64,000 nucleotides of DNA from Psammoneis japonica (GCA_008632985.1 QPGO01000172.1:62001-126000); one strand, 5' to 3'; numbered from the stretch's first letter, positions 4,819 to 42,498 are shown. Notes: a model not told the origin generated them from the letters alone. Numbers and translations: made by a program.

Positions 4819-4854
4819 CCAGCTTTTGACCTTTGATCATCAAGGCATGTTGCC

Positions 4855-10296: not shown

Positions 10297-10866
10297 GATA
10301 CCCGTGTACTGCCGTACTCCAAACAAACCAAAGGATATATCCGGAATTCGCGGCATTCTTATGTCCAAGCTTTTCATTGTGGTGGAAAAGGATTCGCGAT
10401 TGGTTTCAACACTGTCATTGTATCAGTCGTTCTGTGTCGCTCCGCATGTCAATTTGGTGGATCTCATGCAATATGTTTCAGACAGGCGGTGTTTCCATTG
10501 GCGTTGGTGGTCACATGGCGTTGGTTTGTGCCCGGCCGCAAGTTGCTGCTGATGCCTTGAGCGAGGAAGAATTGTGTTCCCCCGAAAGCAGGGGTGTTGT
10601 GCATTCTTACACTAGAAGATGCATTGGAAGCGTTGCTTCAGGAGGAAATATATGACGAGACAGACCGACTGGAACAACGTCAGGAAGAGTTGGCTAGGTG
10701 CGCGTTTGCCCAGTGGAAGAAGTTTGCGTCTGGCAGACCGATTGAATCCTTACACGGTGTTGTCCAACAGACTACAACTCTCCAGACTCTGGCTGAGAAA
10801 GCTAGAGGCCTCTCTACGACAGAAACGAATGTGCATTCGGAGCCCAAGTTTAAATATGATGTGTGA
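10155..10866 (+). pseudogene. CNNM/DUF21-CBS metal transporter, 3' part, frameshifted
   Basis: ALSMKTKTALDVY, IYSSGHSRIPVY, NLVDL, GGHMALVC and TLEDALEALLQEEIYDETD are spread across frames. Confidence 0.85.
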
Positions 10867-13189: not shown

Positions 13190-16100
13190 TTCTTGTGTTT
13201 GGTGACTGGTTGCTCGGTCCTGCAAGAAAGCAAAAGCGCACATCCATCGCTTGCCCAAAACGTAACACCCCAGAGCAATTATTTCAAGGCCAAGTGAGTG
13301 CTCATGGTCACCGCAGGAGTCCTGGTGCAACTGCAAGAGCACAAAACAATTTGCAATTTGATGAACACCGCTTGCCGCCCCTGCAGTGCAGCGGCCAATC
13401 TCATCAAATCTTGCAACAAATGACTGATCAGACAAGACTTGTCATTGCTTCATTGTCCCATCAATCAAGGAAAAGGGGCTGCCCACAGACATCCAGAAAT
13501 GCCACTGCATGGTCCTGCACCAGTGGTGTTTCTGCTTGGTGGCAGAGAATCATCATGTTCGCACAACTTGCAACATTCCAACACATTGCTGCACACAGCA
13601 ATCTCTTGTTTTGCATGTTTTAGAATGAAGAAGTGTGGAGCCAGAGCCAACAATGAGGTGTTGATGAGTGCTTTCATTGGCTCTCCCAAAGCACCTCTGT
13701 CTGTGACAGTGGTTGAGTGTGTGAGAGAGCATGGCAACATCACAAAGACAAGAGTGGAGAGGTTGTCGGTCATGGAATTTGTCGTGGCAGATCAAGTTTC
13801 CCATGATGCTTCTGAGTCTTGTGAGCACAATGATGCTGACACAATGACTGACATGAACAAGAGGGTAAAAACATGACAAGGCTTTGCAGGATGGGAAGCA
13901 TTGTGTGATGCAAATTCTGTTGCCAGATGCACAATTGCGGGTGCAGTTTTGCAAGTGTTGCACTGTGGTTGAGACTCAATTGGCATCTGAGGCATCCTGC
14001 CCATGCTGTCTCCCAATTGCAACAAGACAACACCAATGGTCCAAGAGAGAGATTTCCTGACAAACTTGCGGTTGGCTCTTGGCAGTCTTTTTCCACAGTT
14101 TGTGGTTGTGAATGCAGCCAATTGCCGGAAACCATCTTTTTGTGAAAGTGTTGCAGCTGGACCTGAATGGTTTGCAACATGATGGACAATCTTCAACTTG
14201 GCCAAGATGAAAACCAAAAACGGTTTTGAGAGGTGTTCTCTGTTTTTGCCCACCTTGCAACTTTGCCAAGCAGAGGCGGGCAAATGGATTTTGAGTTGGA
14301 AAAGGCAGCAATTGCACATGGCAAGAGGGAGTCCAATGCCCTTTGAGAGTGATGCAAAGGAAGGGAACACATCCCAAAATGGCTTGGGCTGTCTTTGTCC
14401 AAGAGCAGCAAGAAACAAATCATGAAAGTCAGTGTCAAAGACATGGCAATGTGGCAGTGCCCCTGCATGTTTGAAAAAAAGCAACAGAACTTGGAGCACA
14501 ACTTTTGCAGTCCCTTTGCGGGATGGCTTGCAAAAAGGGCACAACAGGCCCACGCGATTGGGGTCCATTGAAGCACCATTCCATGGGTCTGGGAGAAACA
14601 ATCAAGGTGTGTGCGCTGCACTCAGTCTCTTCTGTTTGGTGATGACAATGATCCACTGTGCCAAATGTTCTTTGCATGTTGCATCTTTGTCCAGTTGCTT
14701 GAAAAGCTGTGTCCTTTGCTTGTTGGACTTTCTGTGGATTTTGATGAAGAGGAAACAAATCAAGATGACAACAATTTAGAGAGCACAACAAAAGACAATG
14801 TGTGAGGAAACCATTGGTGTTGGTTGCATCTCCTCCGGGAAAGAGGCAGTGCAGAGGGGAGGTGCAATTGGATGAAACAAGCCAAGGCAAATGGCAGCGC
14901 CACGCAAACCTTTGATTGTTGTCACATTGCATGCCCCATGGTGATGACCCTGTCAACAAGGATTGGGTTTGCCATGTTTTCAAATGAGAGCAAGCTGCTG
15001 GTGTCCTTGTGGATGGCACAAAGCAATGTGATGCCAATTTAGAGACTGCAGGAGACAACAAGTGAGGAGGCAGAAAAAAGAGTCATGACTGGTGAGTCGT
15101 CATTGAGTGTTTGCCAAATTGCTTGCAAACTGTTTGCTGAACTGAATGCTTCTTCATTCATGACCCCACAAGGAAAGTGTGCCGGATGCGAAGCGAAAAC
15201 GTTCAAGACAACCGGAAAATTCCAAAAGACAAAGACAGCACTGACACTGAAGGGGAAGGTTCTCAAAGGAAAATGCCTGGCTCACAACGTCCCCATGTTC
15301 GAAACCCAAACCAAATTGGAGAAAGCCACAGCGGACTGCGACAAAGAGAAAGAAACACCAAAAGTGAGTGGCACATCACCCACAGTTCACAAGCGTCGAC
15401 TGACTGTTGAGGAAAAATTGAAAGTCCTTGGCGCACTTTGTGAAATGGAAAGATGCAAGCCACACCAGGAACCACCAAGCGAAAAGGAGAAGACTGACAG
15501 AGAGTGTAAAAGAATGCCTTCAAGCACAGGTGCAAAAAGGCTGAAGAGCCAGATGAAACTGTGCAGAAAGAGCTGAAGGACCGTGCAAACACTGTGGACA
15601 TTTCCAACGTTTCGACATGGACACAATCATTGACGATGAGTTTTCGCTGATGATGAATCCTCCAACAAAAATGAAACCAGACGATTCCACCAATGTGTTG
15701 TGGCCTTGCTGTTGTCTGTTTCAGCGAGCGCGGTGAAACACGTGCTTTTCATGATTGGCTGGAAGAAAGCATTTGGACAGCACCAGTGCCACCGACCGCA
15801 GACAAAGCCCAGAAAGCCTCGGTCGGCAAGCACCTGACAGACTTCGTCAACAACTATTGTGAACTGCTGGGGTGCAAATCTCAAGAACAACTGCAAGATG
15901 ACACACAACAAATCTCCAGAAGGAGGCTGCATTGTTGAATGCACACGAACTTCCAGCGAGGGCTCCCGAACAGATTGGCAGAAAAACTCCAAGAAGAGAA
16001 AGTGGTGCACAGTTGCTTTCAGGATTCTCCCATTGCATCTCCTCCATCACCGAGTGATGCTCCCCAAGAAAGTGTCCAGTCGTCTCCAGCGGCTGCGGAT

Positions 16101-17360
16101 GAACTGTCGTCCCCACCTGCAATTGCATTGTCTGGCGATGGTTGAGCTTTGACGGCGAAAGCCAATGAAGAGGAGGGGGCATCAAAACCATCGAAACCGT
16201 GAAAGGAAAACAAGCAGCACCAGATGCCCTGCCAACCAATGTGGTTCATCCAACACAGTCCCAGCCGTGCTCTCCGAAGCAGCCTCTGTTTCAAGTGGCA
16301 GGCCTCCAGACCCCCCAGAAAGTTCCCAGCATGCCAGGAAAAAGCAGAAGAAAAAGAGGAGTGGAAAGAGAAAAGAAGGTGGTTCGTCAGATGTCGCTTT
16401 GAGACTCTTGGTGTCAGAGAAAGAGGGAAAATGTTGGCAACTGAGTCAAGAGCAGCACCCCATTCAAGGAGAACAAACACTGCCTGGTGTGCCACCGACT
16501 GACCGCGAACCTCCAGAAACATCAGTGGAAGAGCAGGCGATGTCCTGTCAAACGGAGGAAATACAAGCGCAGGCGATGGACCAAGGGATTGTGTCTCCAC
16601 AAGAGAATGGACAGCAAGATGTTGTGGGGGCCTTTGCAGTGTATGGGCAAAGAGTTGAACAACGCAATCACATCGTGTGTCCCTCTGTGGTTAGCGAATG
16701 GACGCGACCAGCCGCGCTCTCGCAACCCGAGACGCCTCGCATTGCCCAAGGAGAAGTTGCACACACCAATGAGGAGTTGCAAGCGCAAATTGAGAACCTT
16801 AAAGCTCAATTAGCTCTGCATGAGAACAATGACAGCTTTTCCCAGTCATCCATGCAAGCAGAAGCTGAGGAAGCAGACAGTGTCGCTGCTGGGTTGCACA
16901 GAGAAATGGAAGCACTTCAGCAGCGAACACATGAAATTCGGTCCCAGTCAGAAGCCGAGGATGCAGACAGTGTCGCTGCTGGATTGCACAGAGAAACAGA
17001 CGCACTTCAGCAGTGGATGCATGAACTTCGGCAGCAAGGAGTTGAGGAAACATGGTCCCGCCCTCCACAGCATCTGTCTGCGAGATTCATCCATCCTTGC
17101 AGTGGCCGTCGAACTGACAGGACGGGGATGTGTGTGTGGGGTAAATGCGGTTGCTTGTTTTGACATTGCAGCAACGCAGCAACAGGAACAAATTTAACAA
17201 TGCGAAAATGGCGTTTCAGCAGAAGAAAGTCGATTGCTTGTAGCAGTTTCTTCAATCCTTTGCATCACGCAAGTCACCGATTTCTTGACCTTTCGAGTTG
17301 AATGCCGTTTGCTGACCGCCTTCTTTTGTGAGTCGGTCTTTGGGTTGAAGATTGTGGCAA
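13190..17360. other. TpA-depleted hypermutated domain 2 (edges approximate)
   Basis: Only scattered TA remain (tttag, cttaa, attag, gtaaa). ORFs are Cys/His-rich and nearly Tyr-free. Confidence 0.85.
16165..17163 (+). pseudogene. Hypothetical diatom-type protein with coiled coil and internal repeat, hypermutated
   Basis: VVGAFAV motif, coiled-coil segment and duplicated ADSVAAGLHRE..ALQQ. Confidence 0.4.
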
Positions 17361-17989
17361 GTTGTGGTTCTCTCATAGAGTCGTGTTGCCTCTCGTTTCC
17401 CTTGCTTCATCGTCACAAATCTCAGCATATGGCTGACTTATCAGTAAGCTCAATTGTATTGACAAAAGAGAATCAAAATTCAATATACCTCGTAATGAGT
17501 TGGACAGTAAGCCACGCTTTCGTGGTATCAACCGATTGAGCAAAAAGAACAGCTTGTCAACTTGCAAAACACCATCCCATTTGCACGCGTTGCTGCCACT
17601 CAACCACGACCCCTTACGGTATTCCACCCACTGTCACCACTGATGTGTAGTGCAAGCTAGCAAGTACAAGTCGCTGTATCTTTCGATAATTTATAAGAAC
17701 CGAAAAATGCGCTTCCTTCCAACCACATCGAGGCTAGAGGTTGCGGCGAAGAGGCGTCTTGGAGCGACGCACCTCCATCAAAAGCTATCAATGTAACCGT
17801 AATCAAACTTCTAGTCGCAGATGAGGGCGGTGTCGGAGGCGCCGGTTGCGGAGAAGGGTTGGGAGTCGGTGGCAGAGTTAGCGGTGGTGAGGGGTTGGGA
17901 GTCGGCGGCGCAGTCCGATGTGGCGATGGCTTTTGAGTTGGCGGTGGAGACGGTGCATCGTAGCACGTGAGTCAGCCGTTACTCCAACG

Positions 17990-18493
17990 GCCATTGAACA
18001 TTGGTCGTGAAACTCAGTCATCCATTCCTTTTCTATCCTTTCTTTCAGCATATCGACGTAAAGCCACCCCTCCTCTCCAGGAAAGGACAAAAAGACGTCA
18101 TATTTAGCGTGATGTTCACCGACACAAAGCTTCATGTGTCTAGCAATATCCAGGCCGAAGTGTACCACATCGTTGAGTTTCTCTTGCAGATGGTCGGAAG
18201 CGAATTTGGTGACACAGGTACCCACTCCCGCAAACAAAAAGCCGTTGCGTGTTGATGACAACCAGAGCACTTGAAACTTTCAACACTATACCACCAAGTT
18301 CTTTGAATGATCTGTCGTCATCCGCGGAGAAACTTGGATTCATCAATCTGTGTGTGTCCTCTATAAAGGACCTCAAGACGTTATTTTCCACTTCACCCGA
18401 TGGATGGGGTTCGACTAGGTGGACGAATACTATTTTGAGCATCTGTGTCGTTTGGTATTTCTTTGTCGGTTGCAGTCGGAGGCGTCTCATCAC
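17990..18493 (-). pseudogene. TIR-domain-containing protein fragment (frameshifted)
   Basis: KYDVFLSFPGE...YVDMLKERIE matches the TIR domain start (YDVFLSFRGED). The upstream part is in another frame. Confidence 0.55.
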
Positions 18494-19391
18494 TTCTTGA
18501 TGCTGATGACACTTGCACCACTTTTGTTAGTCGCTTTGCTCGCCGACAGCTCTTATACTTTTTTCCTCGCTTCCTCTAATTCCCGCATCATTTTCTGTCG
18601 CTCAAGCTCCTCAGGGGTATCATCAGAGCCAAACGAAGCCTCAGAGATATTTCATCGCTTCTTCCGCATCCTGGCATTGTTAGATCGTAGGAGATTATCT
18701 TGAATCTTCTTTGGATTTTTACGTTGTGTTGATGTTATCGATTATCTGGATTGTGGCTAAAGAATACGTCATTTCAAAGGAACATATGAATTAAGAAGAA
18801 GGTGACGAGTAACGTGCCATGGGTTTGATGAAAATTGACATGGTTTCAGCAGCACAATGGCCATGAACCGACGAACGCCGCCATTGTCGAAAGATCGCGA
18901 GGAAAGTTGATGTCAGTGGCACGAATTTTGTGCACCAGATGCACACGTGCATTTCTGCGCTGGCACAAAATTTCATTTCTACGAAGCCAATCGCTGTGGG
19001 CGGGCCAGGTCTAGCTTCGAGGCGTTGAGTTCCTACACAATTAGCTCTAGAGGATGAATGCGTTGAGCTTGGGCATTGATTCGCGAATTGTGGGCATTGT
19101 GCATGTTTTTGTGGGCATTGACGTCGGAAATTTTTGTGGGCATTGACGTCGGAAAGCTAGTTTTTTAGTCATTCAATAAATCACAGTAAAAGCGTTGGAC
19201 ATATATTTATTTATGGGGAGGCGTTGAATCACGATTCTTTTTTTCTACGCATTTGGCCCATAACCTCAAAAAAGTGACTGGACGACTCGTGCGAATGAAA
19301 CTCATTCCAACAACGTGCACACCATGGCGGCACGGCTCCGTTCATGAATACACTGTCACTGGGACAATGTCACAGCGGCAAGAGCATTGAC

Positions 19392-20250
19392 ACAAGGTAA
19401 TTCGAATATGGCGAGTATGATGGTGTTTTGTTTTTGTTGGTATCTTCAAAAGCTTTTGAGTTTCTTTTGCATTTGTGTGGGCAGGGTGGTTGTTGTTTTC
19501 TCCGAAACTTGGCTCTATTCATTAAAATCGGCCGTCAGCGGGACGATATTTTGGCGTCTATAATATTGGTACAAGGTAATTCGAATACGCTGAGTTTGTT
19601 GGTGTAGTTGTTTTGTTGACATCTTCTAAAGGTTTCGTGTTTCTTTGGCATTTAGATGGACGTGGAGGTTTTTTTGTTTTCTCTGGTCGTTGGTTGCCGG
19701 TTGCTTGTGGGGCTAGAAACGATGCAGAAAACTGTAACAGGGCATCCAGTGTTGCTTTGGGTTGTCATGACGAGACACATGCTTGAGCCATTGCAACATG
19801 CGGTCTTGGTGGTGTAGTGAGAGGCCGGAACACAACACATTTTTTTCGCGCTTTGGTTCTCGGTCGGCAGTTGCCGGTTGCTTGTGGGGCTAGAAACGAT
19901 GCAGAATGTCAAAACAGGGCATCCATCATTGATTTGCGTCGTTATGACGAGACACTCATTCGATCTACTACAATTTGCGGTCTTGGAGGTACAGCAACAG
20001 CAATTGGCCGGAACACTGCATTTTTTGGACACACTCGGTCGTTGTTGCCGGAGGTGGCGGGTCGGTGGGGCTAGAAACGACACAGAATGTCAAAATAGGG
20101 TATCCGTCATTGCTTTGGGTAGTTATGACGCGATAAACATCTGATCTACTGCAATTTGCGGTCTTGAAGGTACAGCATAAGAGGCCGGAACACTGCATTT
20201 TTTGGACGCACTATGTGCACTGTTTCGTTGTTGTCGGAGGTGGCGGGTCA
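19392..20250. repeat. Two adjacent diverged ~175-190 bp repeat arrays (2 copies plus 3 copies)
   Basis: acaaggtaattcgaata at 19392 and 19571. gtggggctagaaacga at ~19707, ~19884 and ~20065. Confidence 0.8.
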
Positions 20251-22073
20251 CTCCTACTGTCTAAAGAACAGAGGACGAAAAAATAGAGACTGCAAAGGCA
20301 AAAGAAAACAATGCTTGGCCTATTCGGCTACAGATAATTTATTCACTTGAAGCCGGCATTAGGGCTGGAATGTTCAACCGAACTGGGGCAAGAGTTGTGG
20401 ATCAAGATGTGGATCAACAATCTCTGAAAGGCATTTCACGATACAGAGCTCACAAAGGTGGAAGAATACGAGAGCCGAGGAAACGATGCGAACACTGACA
20501 TGTTTGGAGAATTACCACTTCGCAAGGCTGTGCGGTGCGTGAGTTATCGCATGGAGCACGTCAAACAAGAATTCAGGAAGGCCGTGTATCTTGCATTGGT
20601 AGAAAACAAGGGCGACGACAAGGATTATACTGCAGGCTTGAAGAGCAACGCCGTGAAAAGAGCAAGAAAACTGAAGAGATCACCAAGCAACTTGGCAGGT
20701 TAGAGCATGACATTGAGGAGCTACGCGAGGCTCTAAATGAGAAGATAGGAACTTGGAGTGCTAAACGAAAAACTGCATGGGAAAGATCGCGAGAATGAAC
20801 AGACGAAAAAGATCGACGAGCTACTTGAGGAACTCGGTGGGAAGGATCAGGAAATTTAACTGTTGACAACGTATTTTGAGATTCAGTTGTTGAAAAAATA
20901 GATTGAAATGTTGGAAAGGATGTTGAAAAATGAAATGTTAGACGAATGAAAAGATGAAGGGGGGTTCTTCTCCGCAACTTTTGGTTGTCGTCGGCATCAT
21001 TGTTTTGGAATCATCTGCACCACGTGCTTCCTGCAGTAGAAGTTACATTCGGGCTTATCATAGTAAGTAATGTGATTGGAGACTGACTTATATATGAAAC
21101 GACTGAAGCCGTTTGCTCTATTTTCATAGGTGAAGTTAGTTAACGCACTCGTAAGTTAGTTCTGGTCCTCCGACGTCACAGCGCGCTTGACTATTAATAC
21201 TAGGTACTCTGAAGGCACGACGCGTCGGGAAAGTAGGGCTATCCAAAAGACGAGCGTGGGGGGGGCGATCAAGACGTCCAAGACGAAAAGACAGGAGCAG
21301 CTTAATGCGCGGCCCCTCATCATCTGACGACGCTACATAGAAAAAAATGTATAACAACGAACAAAACCACCTAGATGACGATGAGGTTACATTATGAAAA
21401 CTCTCCCTAGAGCACAAAATCATTGCAATCGATGCAGTCTACTCTCTACTCTAGTACGTTGTTTCGGCTGATAATGCTCCGATCCTGTCTTGCATCTAAT
21501 ATGCTGAGAGGTGCTTAGATTCCATGTCCTCGTCCACGGGCCCGGCAGGCATGAAGACACGAACAAGGTATGATGAATACTCTAGCTTGCGTCGTCCTTG
21601 TAGTACCTCTAGCTAGCTATGGCCCTATCTAGCTCTAGGGCCCTAGGCGCGCTCGCCTCGCTCGAGGATCCACAGCCTCATAGCGCGCTCGACTTCTCAC
21701 GATAGAATGCGCACGACACGAGCGTGACGTTGTTGCGTGCCGCGAGCAAAACGAAACGCAAAACCAAGAAGGCGACGACGAGTCGGTCAAGATGGCACGT
21801 CTTTTGTGTGACAGCGGCTGACGAAAGTAGTTTAGAACTTGTATCCAAAAATGTGGCAACACCAATCCGTACCCACGACACAGCACGACACATGATTGCC
21901 AAACCTACTCGTCGTCTCGCTATTACCCCGGCCCATCACCGAGTCGTGACAACGTTATGTACATTTTTACGTGTTTTGTACCGAACATCATCGGATGCCG
22001 ACCACGCAGTTATTTTTCTGTGTCGAGTGTTGTGTCATAATTTTCAGAATCGCCGTCGATTCACAGCTCAACC

Positions 22074-24116
22074 ATGAAAATTGTTATCAACATCCTTTTC
22101 TGCTTTGCCTTTGTTGCCTCCATGAGCACTGGTGCTGTCGCCGCCAGCCCTCCTGCCTCGCTTGTCGACACGGCAAAGAGCGGTCTTCGAGCTCTTTCGA
22201 TTGCCGCGGCAGAGAGTATCGACGTGATGCACGATGACTTGTCACGCAATGCTTGGAAAATGGCTATTGCTATGGGTAAACTCAGGGGAAAGTTGGAAAG
22301 TTACCACAATGCCCCAACCAGTGCCAGGACCCCCACGGAAGAAGCTCACGTCTCCCCGAGCTTGGTACCCTTTTGCCTATCTCTTAATGACGACCACGAC
22401 CACGACGATTCGCCAGCGACACGTCTTAAACAAGTTCTACAAAAGACTAGGCCCGTGCCGGTTAGGCCAATGGACCGTTCGAAAAGCAGTTTCTGTTTCT
22501 TTTATGAGCACGATAAGGACGAACCAGACTACCTCAAGACCGTGGAGCGAATTCTTCGCGACATTTCTCCGACGATCACGTCCTCCATCGACAACTTCGA
22601 CTTGCACGCTGATACCGAGCCAACCTTTTACGACAGGTTTTGCAACTGGTGGAAGACGGTCGAAGACGTATCGAGTCGCTTGATCACTCAAGTGCAGACT
22701 CAGGCTGGCGTGTTGAAAGAACACAATGTTTGGAAGATGGCTATTACTATGGACAAACTCAAGGGAAAGCTTGACGGACCCCACAATGCCCCAACCAGTG
22801 CCAGGACCCCCACGGAAGAAGCTCACGTCTCCCCGAGCTTGGTGCCCTTTTGCCTATCTCTTAATGACGACCACGACCACGACGATTCGCCAGCGACACG
22901 TCTTAAACAAGTTCTACAAATGACTAGGCCCGTGACGGTTAGGCCAATGGACCGTTCGAAAAGCAGTTTCTGTTTCTTTTATGAGCACGATAAGGACGAA
23001 CCAGACTACCTCAAGACCGTGGAGCGAATTCTTCGCGACATTTCTCCGACGATCACGTCCTCCATCGACAACTTCGACTTGCACGCTGATACCGAGCCAA
23101 CCTTTTACGACAGGTTTTACAACTGGTGGAAGACGGTCGAAGACGTATCGAGTCGCTTGATCACTCAAGTGCAGACTCAGGCTGGCGTTTTGAAAGAATA
23201 TGAGTCTATGCCGCTTAGGATCCAAACTTTGTACAACTCCAGTATCGAAAGGCACCAGTTTGAGTTGAGCTTATACAATTGGGGGAAGAGAGTTGAAGAT
23301 ATCTCGATGCGCTTGATTGCTCGAGTGCAGACTCAGGCTAGTCTTTTGCTTGAACGCAAGTCTATGCCGCTTCGGATCCCAATTTTGTACAGCTCCAGTG
23401 GCGAAAGCCACGGGTTGGGGTTGAGCTCATACAATTGGGGGAAGACAGTCGAAGCCGCCTCGATGCGCTTGTTCACTCGATTGCAGACTCAGGCTCGCCT
23501 TTTGCAAGAAGACAAGACTATGCCGCTTCTCACACCAGCCCTGTTGAAACCTCTTGTCGAAAACCGCCAATTCGAGCTGTTGAGGCATTGGTGGATACGC
23601 GTGAAAGGAATGACGACGACGTTTGGAGCATTTATGCTATTGTCGGACAGACCCAGCATCAAAGAGAAAGTGCAAGACGTATCTAAATGGATTCAGACTA
23701 GTGGTTGGCCTAAGTTGATTGCTAAGCTGTCCTGCATTCAGAGTATTGAGAGCAAACGTTGGCGAAAGAAAATTCGACGAATGAACTCTCGCATCTCGAA
23801 AAGGTGTGAAGCAAAGTCGTCTATGGGGTCGTTTGACATTTACAGTGCGAAGTTGTGTCAGCGTTGGCAAAAGGGAGTTGAACGATTGCGGGCTCGTGTC
23901 TCTAAGCATATTGAGCCCCGTATCGAGAGTGGCAAGTGCAAACGTTGGCGAAAGGAAATTTGACGAATTAATTCTCGTATCTCGAAAAGGTGTGAGACAA
24001 AGTCGTCTATCGAGCCAGGATCATTTGACAGCTACAAAACGAAGTTGTGCCAGCGTTGGCAGAAGGGAACGGAACGAATGCGGGCTCGCATCTCGAAACA
24101 TTGTGAGGCGCCGTAG
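22074..24116 (+). CDS. Secreted repeat protein (signal peptide, 159-aa near-perfect duplication) with probable premature CGA>TGA stop at 23961
   Basis: 629-aa ORF with hydrophobic N-terminus and a 477-bp internal duplication (22248/22725). The C-terminal repeat reads att cga cga in copy 1 and att tga cga in copy 2, and stays in frame to TAG at 24114-24116. Confidence 0.7.
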
Positions 24117-24514
24117 ACACCGGACGGGGGAGGATGCAAACCGAGACGTTTCTTGCATCCCGATAAGCTTCGTGGGGTTGCTTACTACTTTAGAGACAAT
24201 TCAGATTAGAAATTAATCATATTCACAAGAGTGTTCTAGTCGTAGTGTTGTCAAAATACTTCCGATAGCGGTGAGTAGCTCCATGCCTCCCGGCGAGGTG
24301 ATGGAATCATCATGATCTTTGCTAAGGTACGACCTGTAACTGTTCTTACATGGACGTATCATTCTCTCAATTCCAGTGGTACCAGTGTGCCCTTTTGGAG
24401 CATCCTATTGAATTTCTTCATTTGAAGCAAGACCATATGGCTACGGTCATTGTCGAGGTTTTAACTTTTCCTCTCCTTGTAGCAACGCAGTGGCTTGCAA
24501 AGTCTATTCACCTT

Positions 24515-25500
24515 TTACGGCATGAGCTTGTCCAGGTCCACGACAAAGACGGCTCGTGTCTTGAATTCGGTCAGCATCCACATTTCTCGCAGGTCATGAA
24601 ATTCTTCAATGTGCAGATCCTCCAGTCCCGGTGGATACGAGACAACCTTATAGCCATTGCTATGATTTTTCGCCCAAGTTGATTGGTTGTTTTGGCACGC
24701 TTCATCGAAATCGGCGACAATGTGCAAGTGGCTGTCATTGACGGGACCGTAGCTGCTTACGGCCCACAGTACCAATTCACTGTCGTTTTCATTCGACTGT
24801 GCCACGGCAACACCTTGCATTTCGGAAAAGTATGGTGTACACAAGGTCCATGGCGAATCACTAGAATCAGCATTTCGTTTCCACGCCAATCGATTCTCCA
24901 ATCGTGACCGACACTCCAACGAATCGTCGTGACTCGCCAAGACGCTTTCGGAACAATGTGCATAGGTTCCCACAACCATCATGTCCAAATTAGCATTGTA
25001 TGACAAGAAGGACGGCACGGTTGGAACCTCGTACTGGGATTCTTGCACGACAATATACCGATACCCAAAAAAGCGATTCTCATCGTCTTGATTGACTTGG
25101 AAGAGACCCGTCTCGACGTCAATGACTCGTACAATTTGGCTCTTGTCACGCAATCAGGAACATGAAGCTTTCCTTGTCGATAGACCAATCCACCGGCATG
25201 CAAGCTTGGCATGGTGCAATAGTTGGGATCCACCAACAAGACGTGTCGGCATGATCGGGACTCCATATCCGTGCTCCACGATTTTCATAACCTTGATCGG
25301 CACGACCTTGCCAACTAATTAACGCAAAAGCAGTTTCATTCAAGGTTGCCACAGTAAAGCCTTGGTGCTCTCTCGCCTGGCCTTGGACTTGTTCCAGTGC
25401 CAGCAGGTAGAACAAATGCCAATGGCTTGCCCCTTTGTTGTTCATCCATCAGCTGCAGAGCCAACCTTCAAAATTTGCATCAGGTTTTTCATGTGCAGCA
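24515..25500 (-). pseudogene. Hypothetical protein, frameshifted; 5' end lies inside hypermutated domain 3
   Basis: 212-aa ORF with protein-like composition plus upstream ORF 25146-25445 in another frame. Confidence 0.45.
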
Positions 25501-28500
25501 CCCATGTTCTCATGACATCACACGTGCACCCCACAATGACAAGACAGCCAACACCCATCACAGCAATGATGACAACCTGCAAATCAGCACAAAATTTTGC
25601 ACATCATGACCATGACACAGTTGGAGCTGATGCACCTCGGTTGGTCAGCAGGTGGTGTGCCACTCATCCTGTTTTTCAGGGCAAACAGACAGGCTCATGA
25701 AGCAATGCGATGCCAATTTAGAGACCGCAGGAGACAACAAGTGAGGAATCCATGAGCATTGAGCATGTTGCCTGGAAAGAGTCATTGCAGCGGGGAGGCA
25801 CAATTGGACAAAACCAGCCACAGCAAATGGCAGCGACGTGTGAACCTTTGATCACTGTCACATTGCGTGCCCTGAGGGGATAACCCTGTGAACAAGAATT
25901 GAGATTGCCATGTTTGCAAAGAAGAGCATGCTGCTGGCATGCTTGCAGACAGAATGGTGTCAGTTGGCACTGTTGCAGAGGCACGGCCAGGATGAAAGTC
26001 TTGCTGACTTCAACACCTGCAAAAAATTCTTAGCACAATTCCTGGGATTGTCACAACTCTTGAAGAACATGACTTTAAAAGCTGGCTTTGGTGTTGTGCT
26101 GGCTGCTGAAGGTTTCTGTGCTGTGCTGAAGCCAGTCCAATGGATCTGGAAACAATGACTTGAGCAGTGGAGGCTGCTGTTCTCAAGCTTGTTTGGTGAT
26201 TTGTCTGCAGAAGAGTGCAGCTTGACCACCTTTGTGCTGTGCACTCCAGCCAGCTGACTCCAGCGAAGCTTCCCACAGAAACTTGCATTTTCTTCCTTGC
26301 AGATGCCGTGCACTGTGTTGTTGCCGAAGTTTGCACATCAATCTCTCCGCTCCACTTCTTCTTCTTCTGCAAATGTCTTGATCAACTTTTCCACAGTTTG
26401 ACTGGACTGCCATCCTGGCCAATTGCCAGCCATTTGCAGACTTGCAATCAGTGATGACATCGGTTGGGATGGACCAGCTTCAACATTGTTGGGGATTCAT
26501 GCCCGGCATCAGCTTCTCAAGGTTGCCTGCACGCAGGGTGTGATCATGCACACACACACCATGTTTTTCAGAGTCTTGCAAGCCCTTCCACTGACCATGC
26601 ACACTGGCAGCACATTGATGGTGGCACTCTTTCAGGCACACATTGTTGTTGCACATGAGGTTGCAGCCCAAAAAATGGCAAATGATGATTCTGCCAAGGT
26701 GGATCTTGCAAGTCTTGGGTTGAGCATCAGATCTGGTTCAGCTTTGAATGTGGCGCTGACAACAAACATTTGCAATGATCAACAGAATGACTCACCTTCC
26801 CCACAGACAGTTTTTCCTCTGGAATGTTTTGAGAGAGTTTTGCTGGGGGAGTGATGCTGCACTGTGCATGCACACAATGCTTTGCTGCTTCTTCTCAACA
26901 GAGAGCCCAAGAAGATGGGGAGAGGTGGTGCCTTGGCAAAACTGATTGCTGCACCTCATTTCCTTTTGCTGGGAGCAAAACCAAGATCAAAAATCTCTTT
27001 CAAAGCTCAGAGAAAGCAGGTCAATTTGACACCACAGCTCTCAGCCCAGGAATCAAGACAAAGTCTGCCCCATCTCCTCTTGAAGTTGGGGCAAGTGGGG
27101 AAATTGCTTGACAGCCAAAGCTGTTGCATGCACTGTCAATTTGAGGACAAAAGAAAAAGCAACACAGCCATTGGGCCAAGCAAGATGAGCAGAACAACAC
27201 AGCAGTGCTGAAGCTGCTCTGCCACCATCTCCCTTGAAATTCTGCTGCCTCATTGATCCAAAATGGAGAGGCAAGATGCTCAAATTGAGCACAATGGTGT
27301 GGGATGTCAAGGATTTTCTTCTTGGAACAATGGCTCTTTCTTGAGCAATGAAAGTGACAAAGCAGATGACACAGGGGCTCATGAAATGAGTTTTGCCAGC
27401 TGGTGGTCCAGTGCTGCAATGAAGTCCAGAGCCAACATCAGCACACCCCTCTGCACTCACTCAAGTCTGGCTCCACAACTCCAAGAAGTGTCCTCCAAAG
27501 TTCCAGGCCCTTCATTGTTGACAATGCAAGCATGCCAATTTTTCACATTTGCACCACAAAGTTGTTTCAGGTGTTGCAGCTGCCACCATTTCCTGCAGCA
27601 GCAAGCAAGTCTGCAGTCACGAGCCCCACTTGAAGGGTGATGTTTCAAAAGATGTGAGAGAAAAATTGCAGTTGTCTGTGCACAAGCAGCAGTCAGCACA
27701 TGTGTGTGCCCAGCTCATGCTCTGCACCTCTCAAAGAGAAAGTGCTGCAAAAATAGAAAGACTGCAAGCCAGTGCAACAGGCTGATTGTGTCATGTGCCA
27801 TTGCATGGAAAGCACTGGCACATGGCTCAGATGTGGTCCATGGGTGTGTTGCTGTCTCCACATCCACTTCACATGCAAAAAAATGCAACAAAGTGCAAGC
27901 ACGCACACACCACCACAGAGGCCATCCAAGCTCACATTTGCTCTGGACAGAAAGCTCTTTCCATCACATGGTTTCATTGTGCTCACATTCTCTCTACAAT
28001 GTTTGGCCACATCAGGCAAGCTGCTTTCTTTCCATGGTCATTGTGACTCAACTTGATCATGGATCATGGCTGAATGCATCATCTCCGAACTGACTTTGAA
28101 GCTCATCACTTTTCCAGCAACAACAGCTGCAATTTTTGGGCTGTCTCTGCCAGCAATGCTCATCTCATTTTTGGCTCTGTTGCTGTTGTTCAACCTCACA
28201 GAGAGGAGCAGACTCCATCCACCCAGCAGGGGCAGTGCTTGCCAAGAGTGCCACACCACCAAACACACCATGGCAAAAATGCCATGCTTGCTTGTGGATG
28301 CACAGCACATGTGTCTCAATGTTGCAGTTTGGCAGCAGTCTCCAATTTTTGCACTTTCTTCTTTTTTCTCATGCTCTAATTGAGACAACAATGACCAACA
28401 TGAGCAAGCTTCTGACAACCACGTTGCCCCTTTTGGCATTGGCAAATCAAGCCACCAGACAGGGCACCAGCATCCCCAATGCAGCAGAGCTCATGGGTGT

Positions 28501-28630
28501 CCTTGGCAGCAACAATTCTTGATTCTTCTCATGCATGGGTGCCAGCAGAACTTGAAATCTTTGTCCTTTTCACTTCAATGCTGAAGAGCAATGCAAGAGA
28601 TCAACACTGTGCTTTGGTGACCCAACTGTT

Positions 28631-29780
28631 TTGCTGACGTTGGTCTGTGACTCCGACAGCACAGGCAGAGATTGCATCTTTGATTGCCCGCCAGCTTCCA
28701 TCCAAGGCAGACTGAACCTTCAGGAATGCATTAAGATCAATGTCAAGCATTGGCAGTGCTTGCCCTCAACAGAGGAAAGTGGGTCTTCAAGAGTGTGGTT
28801 GAGCACCATTCTGTTGGAATCACAGCAGAGTGCGCCACGGCAGCGATTCAAGGAGCTGTCTTCAACACAGTGCAAGTCCAACAAGGGCAATGATTGGTTG
28901 ATGCTTGAAGCAAAGCATCACAAAGTTGCAGATGAGCTGACACTTCCTTTCATGCGCACTTCCATTTTCTGCTCATTTCAACAGCACTGGTGAGGGAATT
29001 GGCTGTGGTGGCTCATGCTCTGTGTCCAACTCAATGTTTGTTGGCTTGCACAAACACAAGGGGTGTTGGCGTTTGCCAATCTCAATCTGAATTGTTTGTT
29101 TCAGAACATTGCTCTCGGTGGTGGTGGCGGGGGCAGCCATCCTCTTCAGGCAACAGATTCCCAGCACAAAACTGGGAGTCACTGACTGCACAGTGCGAGA
29201 CAATTCTCAGGTTGGCAGCCCAGGCTTTGCGCTTTCTGGTGATGCCACTGTGATGTTCATTGGTCCTTCAGTGTTTGTCAACAACACTGCAAGGCAGCAT
29301 GCAGCTCCTGTTGTTCTTGGTGGAGGTGCTCCCTCTGATGGTCTTTGCAACTCTGCTGTTGTGGGACATGTGTCAATGTTCTAGATGGATCCGAGTGCAA
29401 TGGAATCATCGACCTTTCGAAAAAGGCCAAGTTCTGCGAAGCATGCTTTGCTGACATGCCTTCTTTGTCTCCATCAGTTGCACTCTCATCTTCAAGTGCT
29501 CCATCTGCTCAGACATCTTTGGCAGGGACTGGAGCTCCTTCTCTGTCTCCATTGACTGTGCTCGCATCCTCCACAGCTCCACCAGCTTTTCTCACATCTT
29601 CTGTGGCTCCATCTGCTCAACCCACTGTGATGGCCACTGACCCACCCTCCTTTCACCAACGGCTGCCATCATGACTCTGAAACCCAGCTCAAACTGACTT
29701 GGAAGCACCATCAGGTGTGCCTTTGACGGGAGCATCTACATCTGTGAGTCCATCCTTGTTGTCTTCCACCCCTGTCTTCT
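28631..29780 (+). pseudogene. Secreted beta-helix (FxNN.A/GGA) protein with Pro/Ser/Thr-rich tail, hypermutated
   Basis: VTDCTVRDN, SVFVNNTA and LGGGA followed by PSLSPS..APSAQ..APSAQPT repeats, with multiple stops and frameshifts. Confidence 0.5.
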
Positions 29781-30859
29781 TGGGCATCCACATGGCCTGC
29801 TGCTTTTGCTGCTGCTGTTGGTGCAGTTGTTGTGCTGCATTTAAAAACATGGCTTGGTTTGCATGCGTGTCAACTGTTGCTCTCGTTCCCAACAGAATGT
29901 GCACTGCAAAGAAGTCATCTTCATGAATTTCCACTGCAGGAGCAAGCAGTGCATTTTTTTTGGCACATCACAAAGCCATTCCGTCCAAAACCCACTGTCG
30001 TTGAAGACGTTCAAATGGTGCAATGAAGACGTTGAACACACAAGAGGTGGTGCAGACTTAGAATGGTTCAAGCACTTCTTCAAACAGTGGTGTGAAAAAG
30101 TTGATCCAAAGTGGTGTCCTCTCAAGTCGCTGCTTGAGTTCCATGTTGCAGCAGTGACCTCTTGGAGTTGGCCTTGCAAGTGCACTCATGTTGCTTTCTT
30201 GGTGACATTGCCCACAGCGCCCCCCCCCCCCTTGGAATGACCATTCTGACAGGACAAGGACCATGACTCCAAGGTTCTTGTTTTTTTTTTGGCTCCTTGC
30301 AATCCAGATGGGGTGATCACACTGCAATTTGAGTTTTGCAGCCTGCCCCAAAAAGTCTCCTGGGCTGAAAGTTCTGATGCAAGCTTGACATCCAGCAGCA
30401 AAACTCTGTCAAGAAAAATGTGCCAATCAACGAGTTCACATTGCCAACCACGGACCAAGTGGGTGTCATGCAGCCACTGCACATTTTGCTGGTTGCAAAC
30501 ATTGGTGCAGAAAAACGTTTTCTGATGTGACACCCAAATTTGCAAAGAGCAAGAAGAACATGTGGAATGCAAGACCACTTGTGGTTTGGCGATGCCACTT
30601 TGTTGCAACAGGCAAGCAACGATTTTATGACTCATGCCACCTGCTTCTGCAAGGCTCCCCACCACGGTCTCCTTGCACTGGTTCTGCCTGGCAGTTGCTC
30701 TGCTGTGCAACACCAATCAAAACTGTTGGTTTGTGCGGCGAGGCATTTGGTGTTGTTGGTTCATTTTGGCAGCTTCAGCTTCCTGTTTGGCTGCTTCCAG
30801 TTGGTGCTTCTGACCTGGCTGCATCTTGCTTGCTCTGCCTTGCTGCTGCTGCTGCTGCT

Positions 30860-31416
30860 GACGTGTTCCAGCCGCACGTGAACCAAATCGTGCACAAAAA
30901 CAACATTTGCGCGATTTTTGCGCGGTCCCTAACTTTACGATCGAACTTTCACCACCAAAAGTATAGATTTATACAAATGTAAATGTTTTGCAACACTAAC
31001 AAGACTCGTGTGAGTGTTGCAATATCATTGTTATTGTGCTATCTATGTTTTACATTGCGTTAAAAGATTCGTAACACAACGGATGATTTTCGGCGAAAAT
31101 GTTGCCGTTATTTATATGTTACCTAAATATATCTTTCTACGATGCTACTTGGTAGGTTTTCTACCTACAAAAATATCTCAGTATAAATCTACGGACGTAC
31201 AATCAGTATTGAGTCTACTGAGGAAGTTTATGATACATATCCCATGACGATTTGAATACCCCTCAAAAAACTATTTAAATGTACATACTCTAGAAGCCTA
31301 TAAAAGTCAATCCGTCTAAGTATTTTTTATTAAAATGCTGTATACACTAAAGCATGCATAAATTATGTTCAAAATCCGATTGTCGTTTTGTGCGTCACCT
31401 GGGACTGGAACACGTC
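30860..31416. mobile_element. GAC-terminal MITE, subfamily 3, copy F (557 bp, AT-rich core)
   Basis: TIR gacgtgttccag...ctggaacacgtc with tgct on both sides. Inserted in a (tgc)n run and splits a minus-strand poly-Ala coding stretch. Confidence 0.85.
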
Positions 31417-31956
31417 TGCTTCTGCTGCCACTGCTGCTGCTTCTTCTTTCCCCAAGACTTCTTTGTTCCTGGCTTTCCTTTCAGCCTCTTTGTCTGGTTC
31501 CATGAAAAGAAGAAGCTTGTGACCTTGCTGTGCTTGGCACTTGTCGTTTGGTTTGACCTCCTGTTGAGTGTGTGCACTGTGAATGTGCGATGTGCAGTGC
31601 ATGATGCTGACCGCACTCACTTGTTCTGCTCTGTCAAAAGCAGCAAAAACAGCACACTGTGGAGGTGCACAGGCTGTGCAAAAGAAACTCCTCAGTGCAC
31701 ACAATTCTCAACCAAATTTCCCACCACATTTCACAGCATTTCAAACAAATTTTTGCATGTGTTTTGTGCAAGGTCTGACAAAAAAATGTCAGATCATGTC
31801 AGACGATGTCAGAAAATTCAAACACTGGGGAGAAATGTGCCAGGATCACTTCTGCATGGAACCTGCATAGAATCATCTGCAGAGTGCATGTGAACATCAT
31901 CAAAAACAAATGATTGATCTTTGAGAGGAAAGACAAACAAGTGCAATCAAGTGCAC

Positions 31957-32346
31957 GACGCGTTCCAGCCCTAGGTGGGACTCCGTGTGACATTGGGCCC
32001 GTAGAATTCTACGTGCGAGCTCCGTAGTACGAGAATTTAATTAATGGATATATTCATCTTCACTATCAAATAAACGGCCAAGTTTGTGGTACAATTATGC
32101 CTCTTACCACTCGACGTTTTTGCAAATGCACCTGCCCTACGCGATTTTTAAGACATTATAGAATCGCGCTGTAACAAAAAATGTCAAAAGTTGTTGGACG
32201 GATCGCTCAATAACTGTACCGTAAAATGACACAAAATGTCAAAAAAATCACGTAGAAATCTACGTGCGCGACATACGACGTGATTCAAAAAACTATCGAT
32301 GTCACAGTTCAGTAGTACGAGGTCCCACCTAGACCTGGAACGCGTC
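31957..32346 (+). mobile_element. GAC-terminal MITE, subfamily 1, copy C (390 bp)
   Basis: ~25-bp TIR gacgcgttccagccctaggtgggac / gtcccacctagacctggaacgcgtc; TSD gcac/gcac. Confidence 0.95.
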
Positions 32347-33074
32347 GCACTTGAAGTGTGCCCTTTTTTGTGTGCCAGATGACCACGCAGAATTCCATGT
32401 GCAACTTCAGTTGCAAGTGTGCTTTTCAGTTGCAAGTGCACTTTTTGGGCAACCAAGTGTGCTTTGTGTTTCACTCAATGAGTTCAGCACAGCCATCAAT
32501 TTCAATCTGGTTTTTTCTCCCAAAGCTCTGTCATGCAATTTGCCATTGTCCGCAAAAGTGCAGGTGGTCAATTTCTTTGGTCATTTGGCGCTGTTTCAAT
32601 TGCAACTGGATCATTGAAAAAGTGATGATTCAGGAGCTTGGCAGATTTTCTGCACATTCCTGTGCAAGTTGTGTCTGCTGGGTTGTGTCGTGAATGGCAA
32701 ACTGAGTGTGCTTTGATTTGCAATCGTTGCAACTGGTCGCTGTGTTTCCATGCCGCACAAAATTTCTCTGGAATTCAACATGTCTTTTATCTTGCATTTG
32801 ACTTGCCTTTCCCGCCTTGTAAAGAAGCACTGGGGCACTGATTGGTGAGTGTAAAACCCAACTTCTTCACAATTGCACCATGTGGGCTGTTTGTCTGACC
32901 AACCTCTGACAAAATGATGTGGCAACCCAATTTTGTTTTTTGCAGAGGACTGCCGGACACAGCCACACTGCTGCAACAAGCTTGCTCTTCCAGGTGGACA
33001 AGAGCACCTGTTGCATGAAGAATCTGCTCTCTGGACAGGAATTTTTCCACCAATTTCTTTTGTCACAAGCAAGA

Positions 33075-36000
33075 ATGGAGCAGATTCAGTCTCAGCAGAG
33101 GGTGGCTGAAATCTTCCGGGTGATGGAGGCTGAGGTTGGCTCCAGGCACACCCAGCCCAGTGTCCGCTGTGCAGAGGAAAGGCACCACTCAGCTGCTGCT
33201 CCTGAGTCTATCCAGCCCCCTGTCATGAGCAAAAAAGGCTGTGGTGGAAGAGCATGAGTTTCCAAATTGCAAGATGCAGTGGTGGGCCAAAGGCTTGGGT
33301 GAATTTTCCCCTGCAGCAGGCTGGGCAATGGGCACTTGCTCAACAAAAAAGTCTGCAGATGGCTTGAGAAAAGTTTGCAAATGCTGCACGTGTGTCTTTG
33401 TTTGCTCCCTTTGTAGAGAGTTTCTTGAAAGGCCCCAGCAGCCTCAGACAGGAAGGAAGAAGTTTGGGTTGCCGCTCCCTCCCAAGCTGGTGTGCCCCAA
33501 TCATGAGCAAGAGTCAAAATTGGAGCACAAAAAGTGCACCTGCCTGCTGACCTGTCAAGAAGTCAGCACCAGCTCTTGGCTCATGAGCCACAAAGGGAGG
33601 CACCAACACCCAAGCCCCCACCACCAAAGCTCCCAGTGGCAGCACAAGGAAAGCCTGAGGAGTTTGTCAGAGCTGCTCCTGAGTTGACTCCAGCACAGCT
33701 GAGACTTGGAGCTGCAACCAGACCTCAAGTGTCACAGATTCATCCAGCCCTTCACAACAAAGACCACATGAAAAACATGAGAAAGAAGATCTTGAAGCAA
33801 ACAGGGATGAGCTCTTCCATTGCCAGCCTTGTGAATTTCCGAAAGGAAGTGGACCAGAGCTTTATTGTTTTGGAACAGCTCACTGCAGAGGATGCTCACA
33901 TCATCATCGTGCAAGACCAAGACATGATTGACATGCTGAGAGAGCCAGCGTCAGCCATGCAGACTGACTTGGTGGAGGGATTTGTTGTTGATGCAGACTT
34001 CCACGGGCAGATCAATGTCACCTTCTCTTTGCAGTTTGGCACAATGTTGCAGCAGTGGGCCCCAGTCTGCATTTCCATCTTGTTTGGCAAAACTTCTGCA
34101 CACTGCAAAGCCCACTGGCAAAGGGTGCTTCAGTGCTGCCAGACCAACAACTGGGATGATTTCTTGAACAACTTCCAAGGAAACACCACAAGCAACTTTG
34201 CTGGTGCCATTTGAAACGGCTTTTTTGCAGCCATGCAGGAGCTTGCACTTGAGCATCATGACAGGGAAGCCACAGATGAGGAGATTGCCCAGTTTTACAA
34301 CTTTTGTGATGTTCACTTTGAGAGTTCCCACTTTGAGAGGTCCCACATGAGGGTGGCCAGAAACTCTGCTGTTGTCAATCCAGACAGGGAGGACAACTTT
34401 AACCACTGTGTCAACAGCTTGAGGGGCTTTGGCCAAGGAGACTTTGCTCAGTTTGAAAAGTCCTGCGCAAGCTGCTGATCAGATCTCACCCAAATGCCGA
34501 GTCATGGCTGAAGTGGTTTCTCAACCCAAGGAGAGCAAGGATTTTCTTTCCTGCATGCAGGCAGCCAGATGAGCTGCAGCAGCAGAGGCATGAAAAGCTC
34601 TGCACAGACACAAATGCACAGGAAAATGTTGTGAAACAGCTTCAGTGCAGTGTGCCAAAGACCAAGTTGACCATTGGAGAAGCAGCTCTGCATGCTTTCA
34701 AGTTCTGCAATGCCAATGTCTTTGACAGGAAGGCAGCAGCCAGGGGAATTTCACGTCATCATGGAGCTTTCAAGACCATCCAGTCAGGCCACCAGAAGCC
34801 CAAGAGCAAAAGAAAGCAAGGAAGAAAGACAAATGATGGAAGAGCACCAGACACCACAAAGCAGTTGGCAGGGCCAAAAAAGAAGCCTGTGCCCAAAAAG
34901 AGGCCAGGGCAGGCAGCAAAGCTTTGTTCATTGAGCAAGAATCAGGCAGGATGCACCATGAAGCAAACAAGGATCAAGTTCAACACCCCATCATCAAAGA
35001 AAACTGCACCCGGGCATGCTGTGACCTCATTCCAAGGCATCCCATGGAGTGTGCCCAGCAAAGGAGACCGTCCTGGCATCAACAACACTTGCAGGCTGGA
35101 CAGCTTGTGTTGACTTTGCTGTTCTCACTTCACAAACAGCAGCTGATGAAGAAGCCAATGGCAGAGCTGGCTGACCCAGACAACTTCCTGTCAAAGACAC
35201 TCAGCTTGATGGAGAAGGGTGAGTTTGATGATGCCAGACACCTTTGAGTGAGCGACACTTCTGTTCTCAAGGACATGAATCGCCACATCAGAAAAAGTCG
35301 GTTTGCCAAGTTCAACATGTTTGGGTCACTCTCAGCCAGTCCAGGAGCTCCCTTCCCAGCAAGCCAGTCATTTTGAGCCAGCTTTGAGTTCTTTGAAAAG
35401 TGTGCTGCAGGTGACTCTTGGTGTCCTTCACACTTTTCTGATGAGGATGAAGATCATGGGTGCCCAAGGAAAAAGATCTTCAACACATTCCCCACCTCAG
35501 AATTTGACAGCATTCCAGCCACTGCTTCCAAACTTGCCTTGAGAGTGACTTGCAGAAGCATGGGAACTTTCAAGGTGGTGTTGGTGAGGGTGAGGATGGA
35601 GTGATGGTGGCAAGCAACACCCTGGAGGAGAGGCAATGCTGCGGCTTCCTGAACACCGCTGAAAAAGTCATGACGGAGTTCCCACACATGATGGTTTTCA
35701 CAAACAACCCAAAACCTGGCCTTTCATTGGGAAATTTGAAAACAGAGTTCTCTCTTTGTGGGGAACAGTTCAGCTTGAGAGGGACCTTGAATGGGGATGG
35801 TGGAGTCCACTTCACTTCATGCATCAGAGGAGAGGCAAGCTGGATCTTTTGTGATGGAATTGGGGGTGGTTTCCCTGTCTGGGAGAGGCGGATGTTTGGC
35901 AAACAAGACCAGGTTTTTCAGGGAGAGCACAGCTCCCAGATGGTCATCATGGCCACAGTGCACGAGGTCTCAGACTTGGAGGTTGGAGAGGAGAGCAGCA
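33075..36000 (+). mobile_element. Decayed Mutator-like transposase with N-terminal GCM-like Zn domain and downstream USP/C19-like peptidase domain
   Basis: GCM-like GWAM...KCC.CVFVC..C...RP...C.NH...H..C...H.G.H. MULE-like AMQTD, FCDVHF..S..R, WLKW...FFPA, TNAQEN and NDGRAPDTT. Cys box NNTCRLDS at 35081 and His box L.G...G.GGVHFTS..RG..SWIFCDG at ~35770-35860. Confidence 0.7.
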
Positions 36001-42460: not shown

Positions 42461-42498
42461 TTGCAAAGTATAAAAGCAACTGAACATAGCAAGCCACA

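Follow-up and report, generated by a model that had tools for sequence, protein, structure and literature searches.

Long blocks in the genome of the diatom Psammoneis japonica are nearly devoid of the dinucleotide TpA (TA), and the question raised by the locus studied here, a stretch of 64,000 nucleotides (GCA_008632985.1, QPGO01000172.1:62001-126000; hereafter the window, numbered from its first letter as 1, in a parent assembly of 91 Mb, for one of whose genes all named homologues come from diatoms), is which process removed these TAs and what the few survivors tell of its preferences. Using a two-state hidden Markov model (HMM) to call TA-poor blocks, we obtained nine that together occupy 29 kb of the 64 kb. 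Two of them, block 1 (13281-17376, 14 TAs in 4.1 kb, 7 of them in the context YTAR, where Y is a pyrimidine and R a purine) and block 2 (25409-30930, 13 TAs in 5.5 kb, 8 of them YTAR, with CG strongly depleted too), enclose ordinary DNA (17377-25408), which served as an internal control and holds 320 TAs, 74 of them YTAR, between 17400 and 25400. A sequence-only reading of this region had claimed that the surviving TAs are mostly YTAR and that this betrays a preferred TAY target with a TadA-like motif. Our analysis shows that A is changed to G at TA only, and about 3-fold faster when a pyrimidine follows the A (TAC~TAT>TAG>TAA).

The enrichment itself is real. Fifteen of the 27 TAs surviving in the two blocks (56%) are YTAR (8 TTAG, 5 TTAA, 1 CTAA and 1 CTAG), at 13621, 14777, 15040, 16692, 16800, 16811 and 17195 in block 1 and at 25719, 26031, 26076, 28377, 28732, 29382, 29842 and 30059 in block 2, and two (16562, 16642) are RTAY. 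All 13 positions singled out earlier are indeed TAs in YTAR context (26030 being 26031), but that list missed the YTAR sites 16692 and 17195 and left out 12 survivors of other classes. With the HMM edges, YTAR accounted for 15/29 TAs in the blocks of this span versus 74/322 outside them (Fisher p=0.0014), for 53/107 versus 263/1496 in the whole window (p=6e-13), and for 319/639 versus 1467/8115 in an outside sample of 37 stretches of 10 kb (370 kb) from other contigs (p=1e-67; 40 were requested, 3 of them nonexistent). Thus, "mostly" has to be toned down to about half, against a fifth expected. In the same outside sample 46.7% of bases lay in TA-poor blocks, 29 of the 37 stretches passed a test for TA-poor islands, and the blocks differed from the remaining DNA in TA (3.7 versus 41 per kb), CG (20 versus 56), and TG and CA (109 versus about 71), with AA at 77 in both. 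Survival was 0.25 for YTAR, 0.08 for YTAY, 0.07 for RTAR and 0.016 for RTAY, so that the NTAN contexts are depleted unequally.

Since survival of YTAR fits a pyrimidine at +1 (the base after the A of TA) and a purine at -2 (the base 5' of the T; +2, -2 and -3 are likewise numbered relative to the A) equally well, the direction of change is needed to separate them. We followed it in two data sets (426 and 64 sites) that are independent of each other and whose context fits agree. One comprised 86 distinct copies of miniature inverted-repeat transposable elements (MITEs), 53 of family M1 (30 reference TAs per copy) and 33 of family M2 (34 per copy; 2 of 35 copies were dropped as too divergent), which were selected by similarity to the query and cover every stage of decay. 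The other comprised 21 hand-picked pairs of intact and mutated copies, leaving out duplicates and most low-identity matches but taking in the two host genes that have decayed copies in block 1, and substitution counts were restricted to pairs at least 85% identical. As the +1 rule predicts, YTAY sites went to TG (13 versus 0 of 14 sites in the MITEs, 66 versus 34 of 125 in the pairs) and RTAR sites to CA (12 versus 3 of 20, and 63 versus 20 of 99). Competing-risk fits with bootstrap over sites gave rate ratios of 2.8 (2.2-4.0) and 3.6 (2.6-6.7) for a pyrimidine at +1 and of 0.74 and 1.0 for a pyrimidine at -2; a -2 purine was therefore rejected as the main rule, A at -2 giving a modest boost of 1.6-1.8. 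The TAY preference postulated from the survivors was thereby borne out, including the caveat that it is not absolute, as the first cTAg site in the terminal inverted repeat is altered in 23 of 53 M1 and 20 of 33 M2 copies.

The substitutions are of one kind. Ancestral TAs in the 86 MITE copies had become TG in 436 cases and CA in 441 (877 in total), and the transversions, at 8, make up less than 1% of TA changes. Only 3 had become CG, versus about 254 expected if the strands changed independently, which indicates that a changed TA step is no longer a target. By 5' base, A>G affected 883/5422 TA (16.3%), 60/4010 CA (1.5%), 29/6182 AA (0.5%) and 7/3685 GA (0.2%) in the MITEs, raw counts in which inherited subfamily variants inflate the non-TA figures, and 307/433 TA, 17/1301 AA, 26/1213 CA and 11/1112 GA in the pairs. 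CA, AA and GA each lie at least 10-fold below TA, and comparable AA>AG rates, which, like an equal depletion of all contexts, would have refuted the sequence-only reading, were not found, AA being slower than TA by 35-fold (raw, MITEs) to about 95-fold (as a hazard, pairs). CG decays alongside, CG>TG reaching 94/788 in the pairs versus 4/1194 for CA>TA, and it lags behind, with 14% of CG versus 83% of TA lost in the most mutated M2 copies. Changes on the two strands are mixed, also in lightly hit copies: strand coordination was absent from the MITE copies (chi-squared 68.5 versus 70.2+-11.7 expected), and adjacent changes fell on the same strand in 381/795 cases versus 367+-13, on which grounds strand-coordinated bursts were rejected. 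As to timing, a young M1 copy (31957-32346, + strand) has lost 2 of its 30 TAs in the midst of TA-free surroundings, so the change occurs in DNA after insertion; losses per MITE copy range from 0 to 32, which shows recent activity only.

Finer flank effects separate this rule from a TadA motif. Relative rates were 4.7 for TAC, 5.0 for TAT, 2.0 for TAG and 1 for TAA (about 5:5:2:1), with a TAC/TAT ratio of 0.95 (confidence interval (CI) 0.68-1.29) and a TAC/TAG ratio of 2.35 (CI 1.69-3.56). TACG was slower than other TAC (TACH) at 0.34 (CI 0.17-0.53). With TAT as fast as TAC and TACG slow, the proposed TadA-like motif is not supported in its specific form. In a pooled fit of both data sets TACG stood at 0.41 (0.21-0.62), and a CG directly preceding the step (CGTA) slowed it about 9-fold (0.11, 0.05-0.18; 0.22 in the pairs and 0.09 in the MITEs); T at -3 (0.28), T at -2 (0.44) and A at +2 (0.43) slowed it too. 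The same fit gave no clear effect for a non-CpG C at -3 (0.87), for a G at +2 preceded by a base other than C (0.86) or for a CpG one base further out (1.2), and we found neither an effect of distance to CpG beyond direct adjacency nor one of AT content. The survivors agree with these rates: T-N-TA-N-A makes up 158/639 of them in blocks versus 644/8115 of TAs outside (outside sample), TAC in blocks is followed by G in 62/285 cases (22%) versus 7-11% for AAC, GAC and CAC, and fitted rates predict survivor classes of 51/20/21/8% versus 50/24/22/5% observed in the outside sample. Hexamer survival correlated better with the full rates than with +1 alone (Spearman 0.71 versus 0.52).

Our preferred explanation, to which we grant not quite an even chance, is a distributive host mutator of silent blocks, most likely an adenine deaminase with a specificity unlike that of TadA. 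Such a mutator would act on chromosomal DNA after insertion, within sharply bounded silent blocks of transposons, MITEs and decayed gene copies, and would turn one base of the TpA step into a directly miscoding base, site by site and on either strand, yielding TG or CA; the change on the first strand would remove the step from the substrate pool. What the slowing bases have in common is a T or a CpG cytosine 1-2 bases 5' of the step, on one strand or the other. If the TA-poor blocks are CpG-methylated, as is suggested by their CpG decay and by the CG-methylated islands that diatom transposable elements form (PMC9998398), then all the slowing bases are 5-methyl groups, and the common slowing factor could be a 5-methyl group (of T or 5-methylcytosine, 5mC) located 1-2 bases 5' of the step. 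As such groups would slow the change on either strand, the enzyme or its access would depend on duplex DNA. The sparing of AA, transversions below 1%, the lack of patches and the protection next to CpG fit a directly miscoding base better than a polymerase, and the most likely chemistry would be conversion of A to hypoxanthine by an adenine deaminase that reads something other than TadA's UACG. Candidates for the deaminase are an ADAT2 complex whose specificity has been retuned or an ADAR-type domain that stands alone, and the genome encodes both types. Profile matches (9 to PF00383, 5 to PF14437 and 4 to PF02137) include TadA (L095) and ADAT2 (L098), housekeeping genes that carry the catalytic motif HxE-PCxxC, and two A_deamin loci (L195 on C40 and L196 on C79), one of which may be ADAT1 and the other a candidate of the stand-alone ADAR type. 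These profile searches of the genome recovered neither ADAT3 nor cytidine deaminase, so their sensitivity is limited. Centric as well as pennate diatoms have relatives of the L196 type, for which no further Pfam domain is listed. A more far-reaching possibility, which we advance tentatively, is a natural A:T>G:C editor of CpG-methylated duplex chromatin in algae of the SAR group (stramenopiles, alveolates and rhizarians), reading TpA together with major-groove methyls on both strands, whether as a duplex-DNA adenine deaminase or as a thymine-modifying "reverse RIP" (repeat-induced point mutation) enzyme. Its scope can be put forward with the same reserve as diatoms, perhaps other SAR algae, with about half of this genome rewritten.

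Several observations weigh against the deaminase explanation. The outcome is strand-symmetric, so that a lesion on A and a lesion on T give the same counts; because the data cannot place the modified base on A rather than T, a deaminase is not proven. The duplex argument leans on TACG, for which the pairs alone gave 0.71 (CI 0.34-1.18), not significant; its 5mC component is inferred from CG decay, and a CpG-binding protein that shields the adjacent step would produce the same pattern. The predicted YTAR fraction, 41-51%, is set by the assumed spread of ages (41% with age spread), and the MITE copies, picked by similarity, partly have inherited changes in common. None of the deaminases found is linked to the mutator, and there is no expansion beyond L095, L098 and L195/L196; in the stretches of the candidate deaminases that were read, no chromatin-binding domain was seen. 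Moreover, 49 of 50 low-GC metagenome loci around L196 relatives lack a clear TA-poor island.

Among the alternatives, a lesion on the thymine side is unlikely but carries the most weight. Here the T of TpA would be oxidised, O4-alkylated or aminated and then pair with G, as a mirror image of fungal RIP (CpA>TpA), and a base-flipping C5-methyltransferase-like protein, such as a diatom relative of DNMT4/RID, could be involved. Each A>G being a T>C on the opposite strand, it explains the same counts, the rule then reading RTA>CTA>TTA on the T strand with T*ACG slowest. An enzymatic T>C change in DNA has no precedent known to us, though no search was aimed at one; this counts against the explanation, as does the sparing of intact parent genes and most tandem duplicates, unlike RIP. 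A Tet_JBP profile search gave no match, but neither did its control, so that it carries no weight either way. The strict reading of a dinucleotide, the sensitivity to duplex DNA and the shared location with CpG decay would be in keeping with an enzyme that flips pyrimidines, DNA_methylase (C5-methyltransferase) loci are numerous in the genome (27 matches, unclassified), and diatom DNMT4 is reported to be related to RID (PMC9998398). It is improbable that a TadA/ADAT2-type enzyme in the strict sense, editing A in single-stranded or hairpin-loop DNA with the tRNA-loop-like preference U-A-C-G, is responsible. Although the 5' T and 3' pyrimidine resemble U-A-C, TAT equals TAC and TACG is the slow TAC, and the absence of strand clustering leans against long single-stranded tracts. 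An intact ADAT2 (HAE/PCxxC, N residue) is present, as in B. natans, but it does not discriminate, as this is a housekeeping tRNA enzyme that commonly has the N residue. On RNA, the motif preferred by TadA-derived editors is UACG(A) (PMC8052359), and amphioxus ADAT2, which does edit DNA, favours in E. coli GAA for A and TCG for C (PMC10354150), GA being the coldest class here.

Error-prone synthesis or repair, by patches of a Y-family polymerase (pol eta or iota-like) after 5mC deamination or by adenine excision and Rev1 bypass, appears rather improbable as well. The genome has five Y-family loci, including pol eta (L186) and another gene that is eta/iota-like (L188). The TA:AA ratio of pol eta is near 2:1, and at TA we counted 8 transversions versus 877 transitions and saw no same-strand patches. 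TA is lost before CG, the rate does not drop with distance from CpG, and CpG-adjacent TAs are protected rather than hot. Pol eta targets WA, a hotspot motif that TA presents on either strand (PMC7884765); AA, as part of the same WA target, is slower by the factors given above. Canonical pol eta is therefore very unlikely and largely refuted, which leaves a highly divergent polymerase acting at TA only. A by-product of base composition, new TAs (CA>TA, TG>TA), stop-codon selection or assembly error, finally, is scarcely credible as the source of the survivor pattern. TAA and TAG are stop codons, and of the 111 TAs that mutated copies contain, 19 either arose anew or stem from a change in the reference copy, 11 of these 19 being YTAR, but the other 92 are also TA in the intact copy and hence ancestral; in non-coding MITEs both the substitutions themselves and their direction give the same rule, the pattern replicates in the 37 other stretches, and short-read contigs agree. 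The direct counts and directions in MITEs and pairs thus refute this explanation.

The blocks of the window illustrate the process on decayed gene copies and repeated DNA. Block 1 holds, on the + strand, a decayed copy of a host SNF2/PHD/bromodomain gene (13928-15019), which kept 0 of 17 aligned TAs at 13928-14555 (10 TG, 6 CA, 1 other), and one of a host TIR-ankyrin gene locus (15066-16478), which kept 1 of 28 at 15066-16158 (12 TG, 11 CA, 1 CG, 3 other), while their parents, L005 and L012, are intact. Block 2 contains another decayed fragment (25714-26156, +), which is related both to the L005 gene and to 14772-15009. The further TA-poor blocks called by the HMM are 4344-6908, 31365-31972, 32331-36536, 40257-42469, 53105-57966, 58225-59569 and 60292-64000. 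Besides the young copy, M1 occurs at 57921-58309 (+, 6/30 TAs lost) and 59554-59943 (-, 18/30 lost, 10 TG and 8 CA), and M2 at 53807-54202 (+, 27/34 lost) and 4855-5250 (-, 29/34 lost). The M2 copy at 53807 interrupts a repeat copy (53153-55427, +) that is 94% identical to the intact L126 and in which 88 aligned TAs gave 75 TG or CA, 11 kept, 1 CG and 1 other, with AA>AG at 3/332. Most of the MITE copies fetched (L013-L092) have TA-poor flanks, near-intact ones included, which, in a sample chosen by similarity, suggests a bias of insertion or retention toward TA-poor blocks. Tandem duplicates outside the blocks keep their TAs, with TA-type differences of 0/13 (9148-10299), 0/10 (8695-9051) and 4/19 (22244-23198).

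A contig from the short-read run X1 matches 25278-29118 with one other letter and one gap, which argues against an assembly artefact across block 2, although X1 may be the assembly's own source sample. Block 2 (25414-29662) is covered about 70x in X1 and a neighbouring gene about 120x with two alleles, so that the block may be confined to one haplotype or diverge from the other by over 8%. At 33863 one X1 contig has T>C at a surviving TA (TA>CA), for which an allele, a paralog and recent activity are possible explanations. Between two blocks, 30930-31365 is an untouched AT- and TA-rich high-copy stretch, and the element around it has inverted ends (30848-30881 and 31395-31428) resembling those of MITEs. 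Intact host genes in ordinary DNA, at 42490-43776 (+) and 44177-45037 (-), resemble, when read by eye, a phosphatase of PP1 type and a haem peroxidase. Elsewhere in the genome, C5-methyltransferase copies (L107, L108, L109, L113 and L116; C301, C297 and C28) lie within TA-poor blocks, some with stops, and may be mobile-element cargo or decayed duplicates. L097:313-1785 (-) is an intact open frame with zinc deaminase and 2OG-Fe(II) oxygenase domains, possibly for nucleobase salvage, and the dCMP deaminase open frames L093 and L094 (C41 and C317) are identical, which probably reflects a haplotype that the assembly contains twice.

Around L196 relatives in metagenomes, by the test that 29 of the 37 stretches from this genome pass, a clear TA-poor island was seen in 1 of 80 loci, one of the 50 with low GC (305 kb); since the loci are gene-centred and short, absence elsewhere does not follow. 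It lies on a microbial-mat contig from another organism, with 69% DNA identity at the shared A_deamin gene (L222:5840-6735); this 0.9 kb island at the contig end is TA-poor, CG-poor and TG/CA-rich, and of its last 6 TAs 4 are YTAR, 2 ATAA and none RTAY. This hints, if only faintly, that the trait extends beyond this diatom. The flank rule (TAY fast, TTTAAA-like and CpG-adjacent sites slow, AA spared, no strand clustering) sets a standard that any candidate protein must reproduce on defined oligonucleotides, and it argues against canonical pol eta as well as against a simple loop preference of the TadA/ADAT2 kind. Should the duplex explanation be true, the mutator would be a natural double-strand A:T>G:C editor, relevant to algal genome defence and to base editing. 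In diatoms with a TA mutator, repeat ages, codon models and divergence estimates are biased.

Compared with known systems, the process resembles RIP in that dinucleotide-specific transitions erode repeats, in organisms that carry the RID-related DNMT4 (PMC9998398). Its direction, however, is opposite, TpA>CpA here versus CpA>TpA in fungi, with CA>TA at 4/1194. RIP hits both duplicated copies, and linked duplicates most, while here the intact parent is spared and tandem duplicates outside blocks, which may be young, keep their TAs; opposite direction and spared parents together indicate that it is not RIP. With somatic hypermutation by pol eta at WA (SBS9-like) it has in common A>G at TA on both strands, and it is set apart from it by spared AA, rare transversions and missing patches. 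It is like TadA, ADAT2 and adenine base editors in its A>G outcome, its 5' T/U and a tolerated pyrimidine at +1. Engineered adenine base editors also edit CA, which here is at least 10-fold slower than TA, and TACG, favoured there as UACG(A), is disfavoured here. ADAR1/2 flip A out of a duplex and prefer a 5' U, and the genome has two A_deamin genes, but ADARs act on RNA, whereas here DNA elements gather the changes once they are inserted; ADARs prefer UAG (PMC10661471), whereas TAG is about 2.4-fold slower than TAC here.

The closest counterpart is the chlorarachniophyte Bigelowiella natans, in which A>G/T>C hypermutation at TpA only has been measured de novo in integrated DNA of nucleocytoplasmic large DNA viruses (NCLDV) as well as virophages, ongoing at about 1000-fold background, switched on in some lines only and leaving 124 TpA-poor clusters, with ADAT2 proposed as the enzyme (Mettrop et al., bioRxiv 10.64898/2026.01.13.699255). 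That ADAT2 is a poor fit to the diatom flank rule. Neither a flank analysis nor a mention of diatoms was found in the text of that preprint, whose Fig. 2B or Table S2 may contain information on flanks, and a literature search, which missed most subscription papers, found no diatom precedent or flank rule. As far as that source goes, a TpA hypermutator is known from this one preprint with no enzyme assigned, and a flank rule is measured here for the diatom. The two systems differ in that the diatom has about 47% of sampled DNA in blocks versus 124 clusters, that its targets include MITEs and decayed host-gene copies, and that CpG decays alongside. They share A>G/T>C at TpA only, giving TpG/CpA (877 transitions versus 8 transversions here), and regional action on silent foreign or repeat DNA that spares ordinary genes, can hit single-copy targets and leaves TpA-poor clusters in the long term. 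By this analogy, and enzyme identity aside, the process in the diatom appears to work as the hypermutation of B. natans does.

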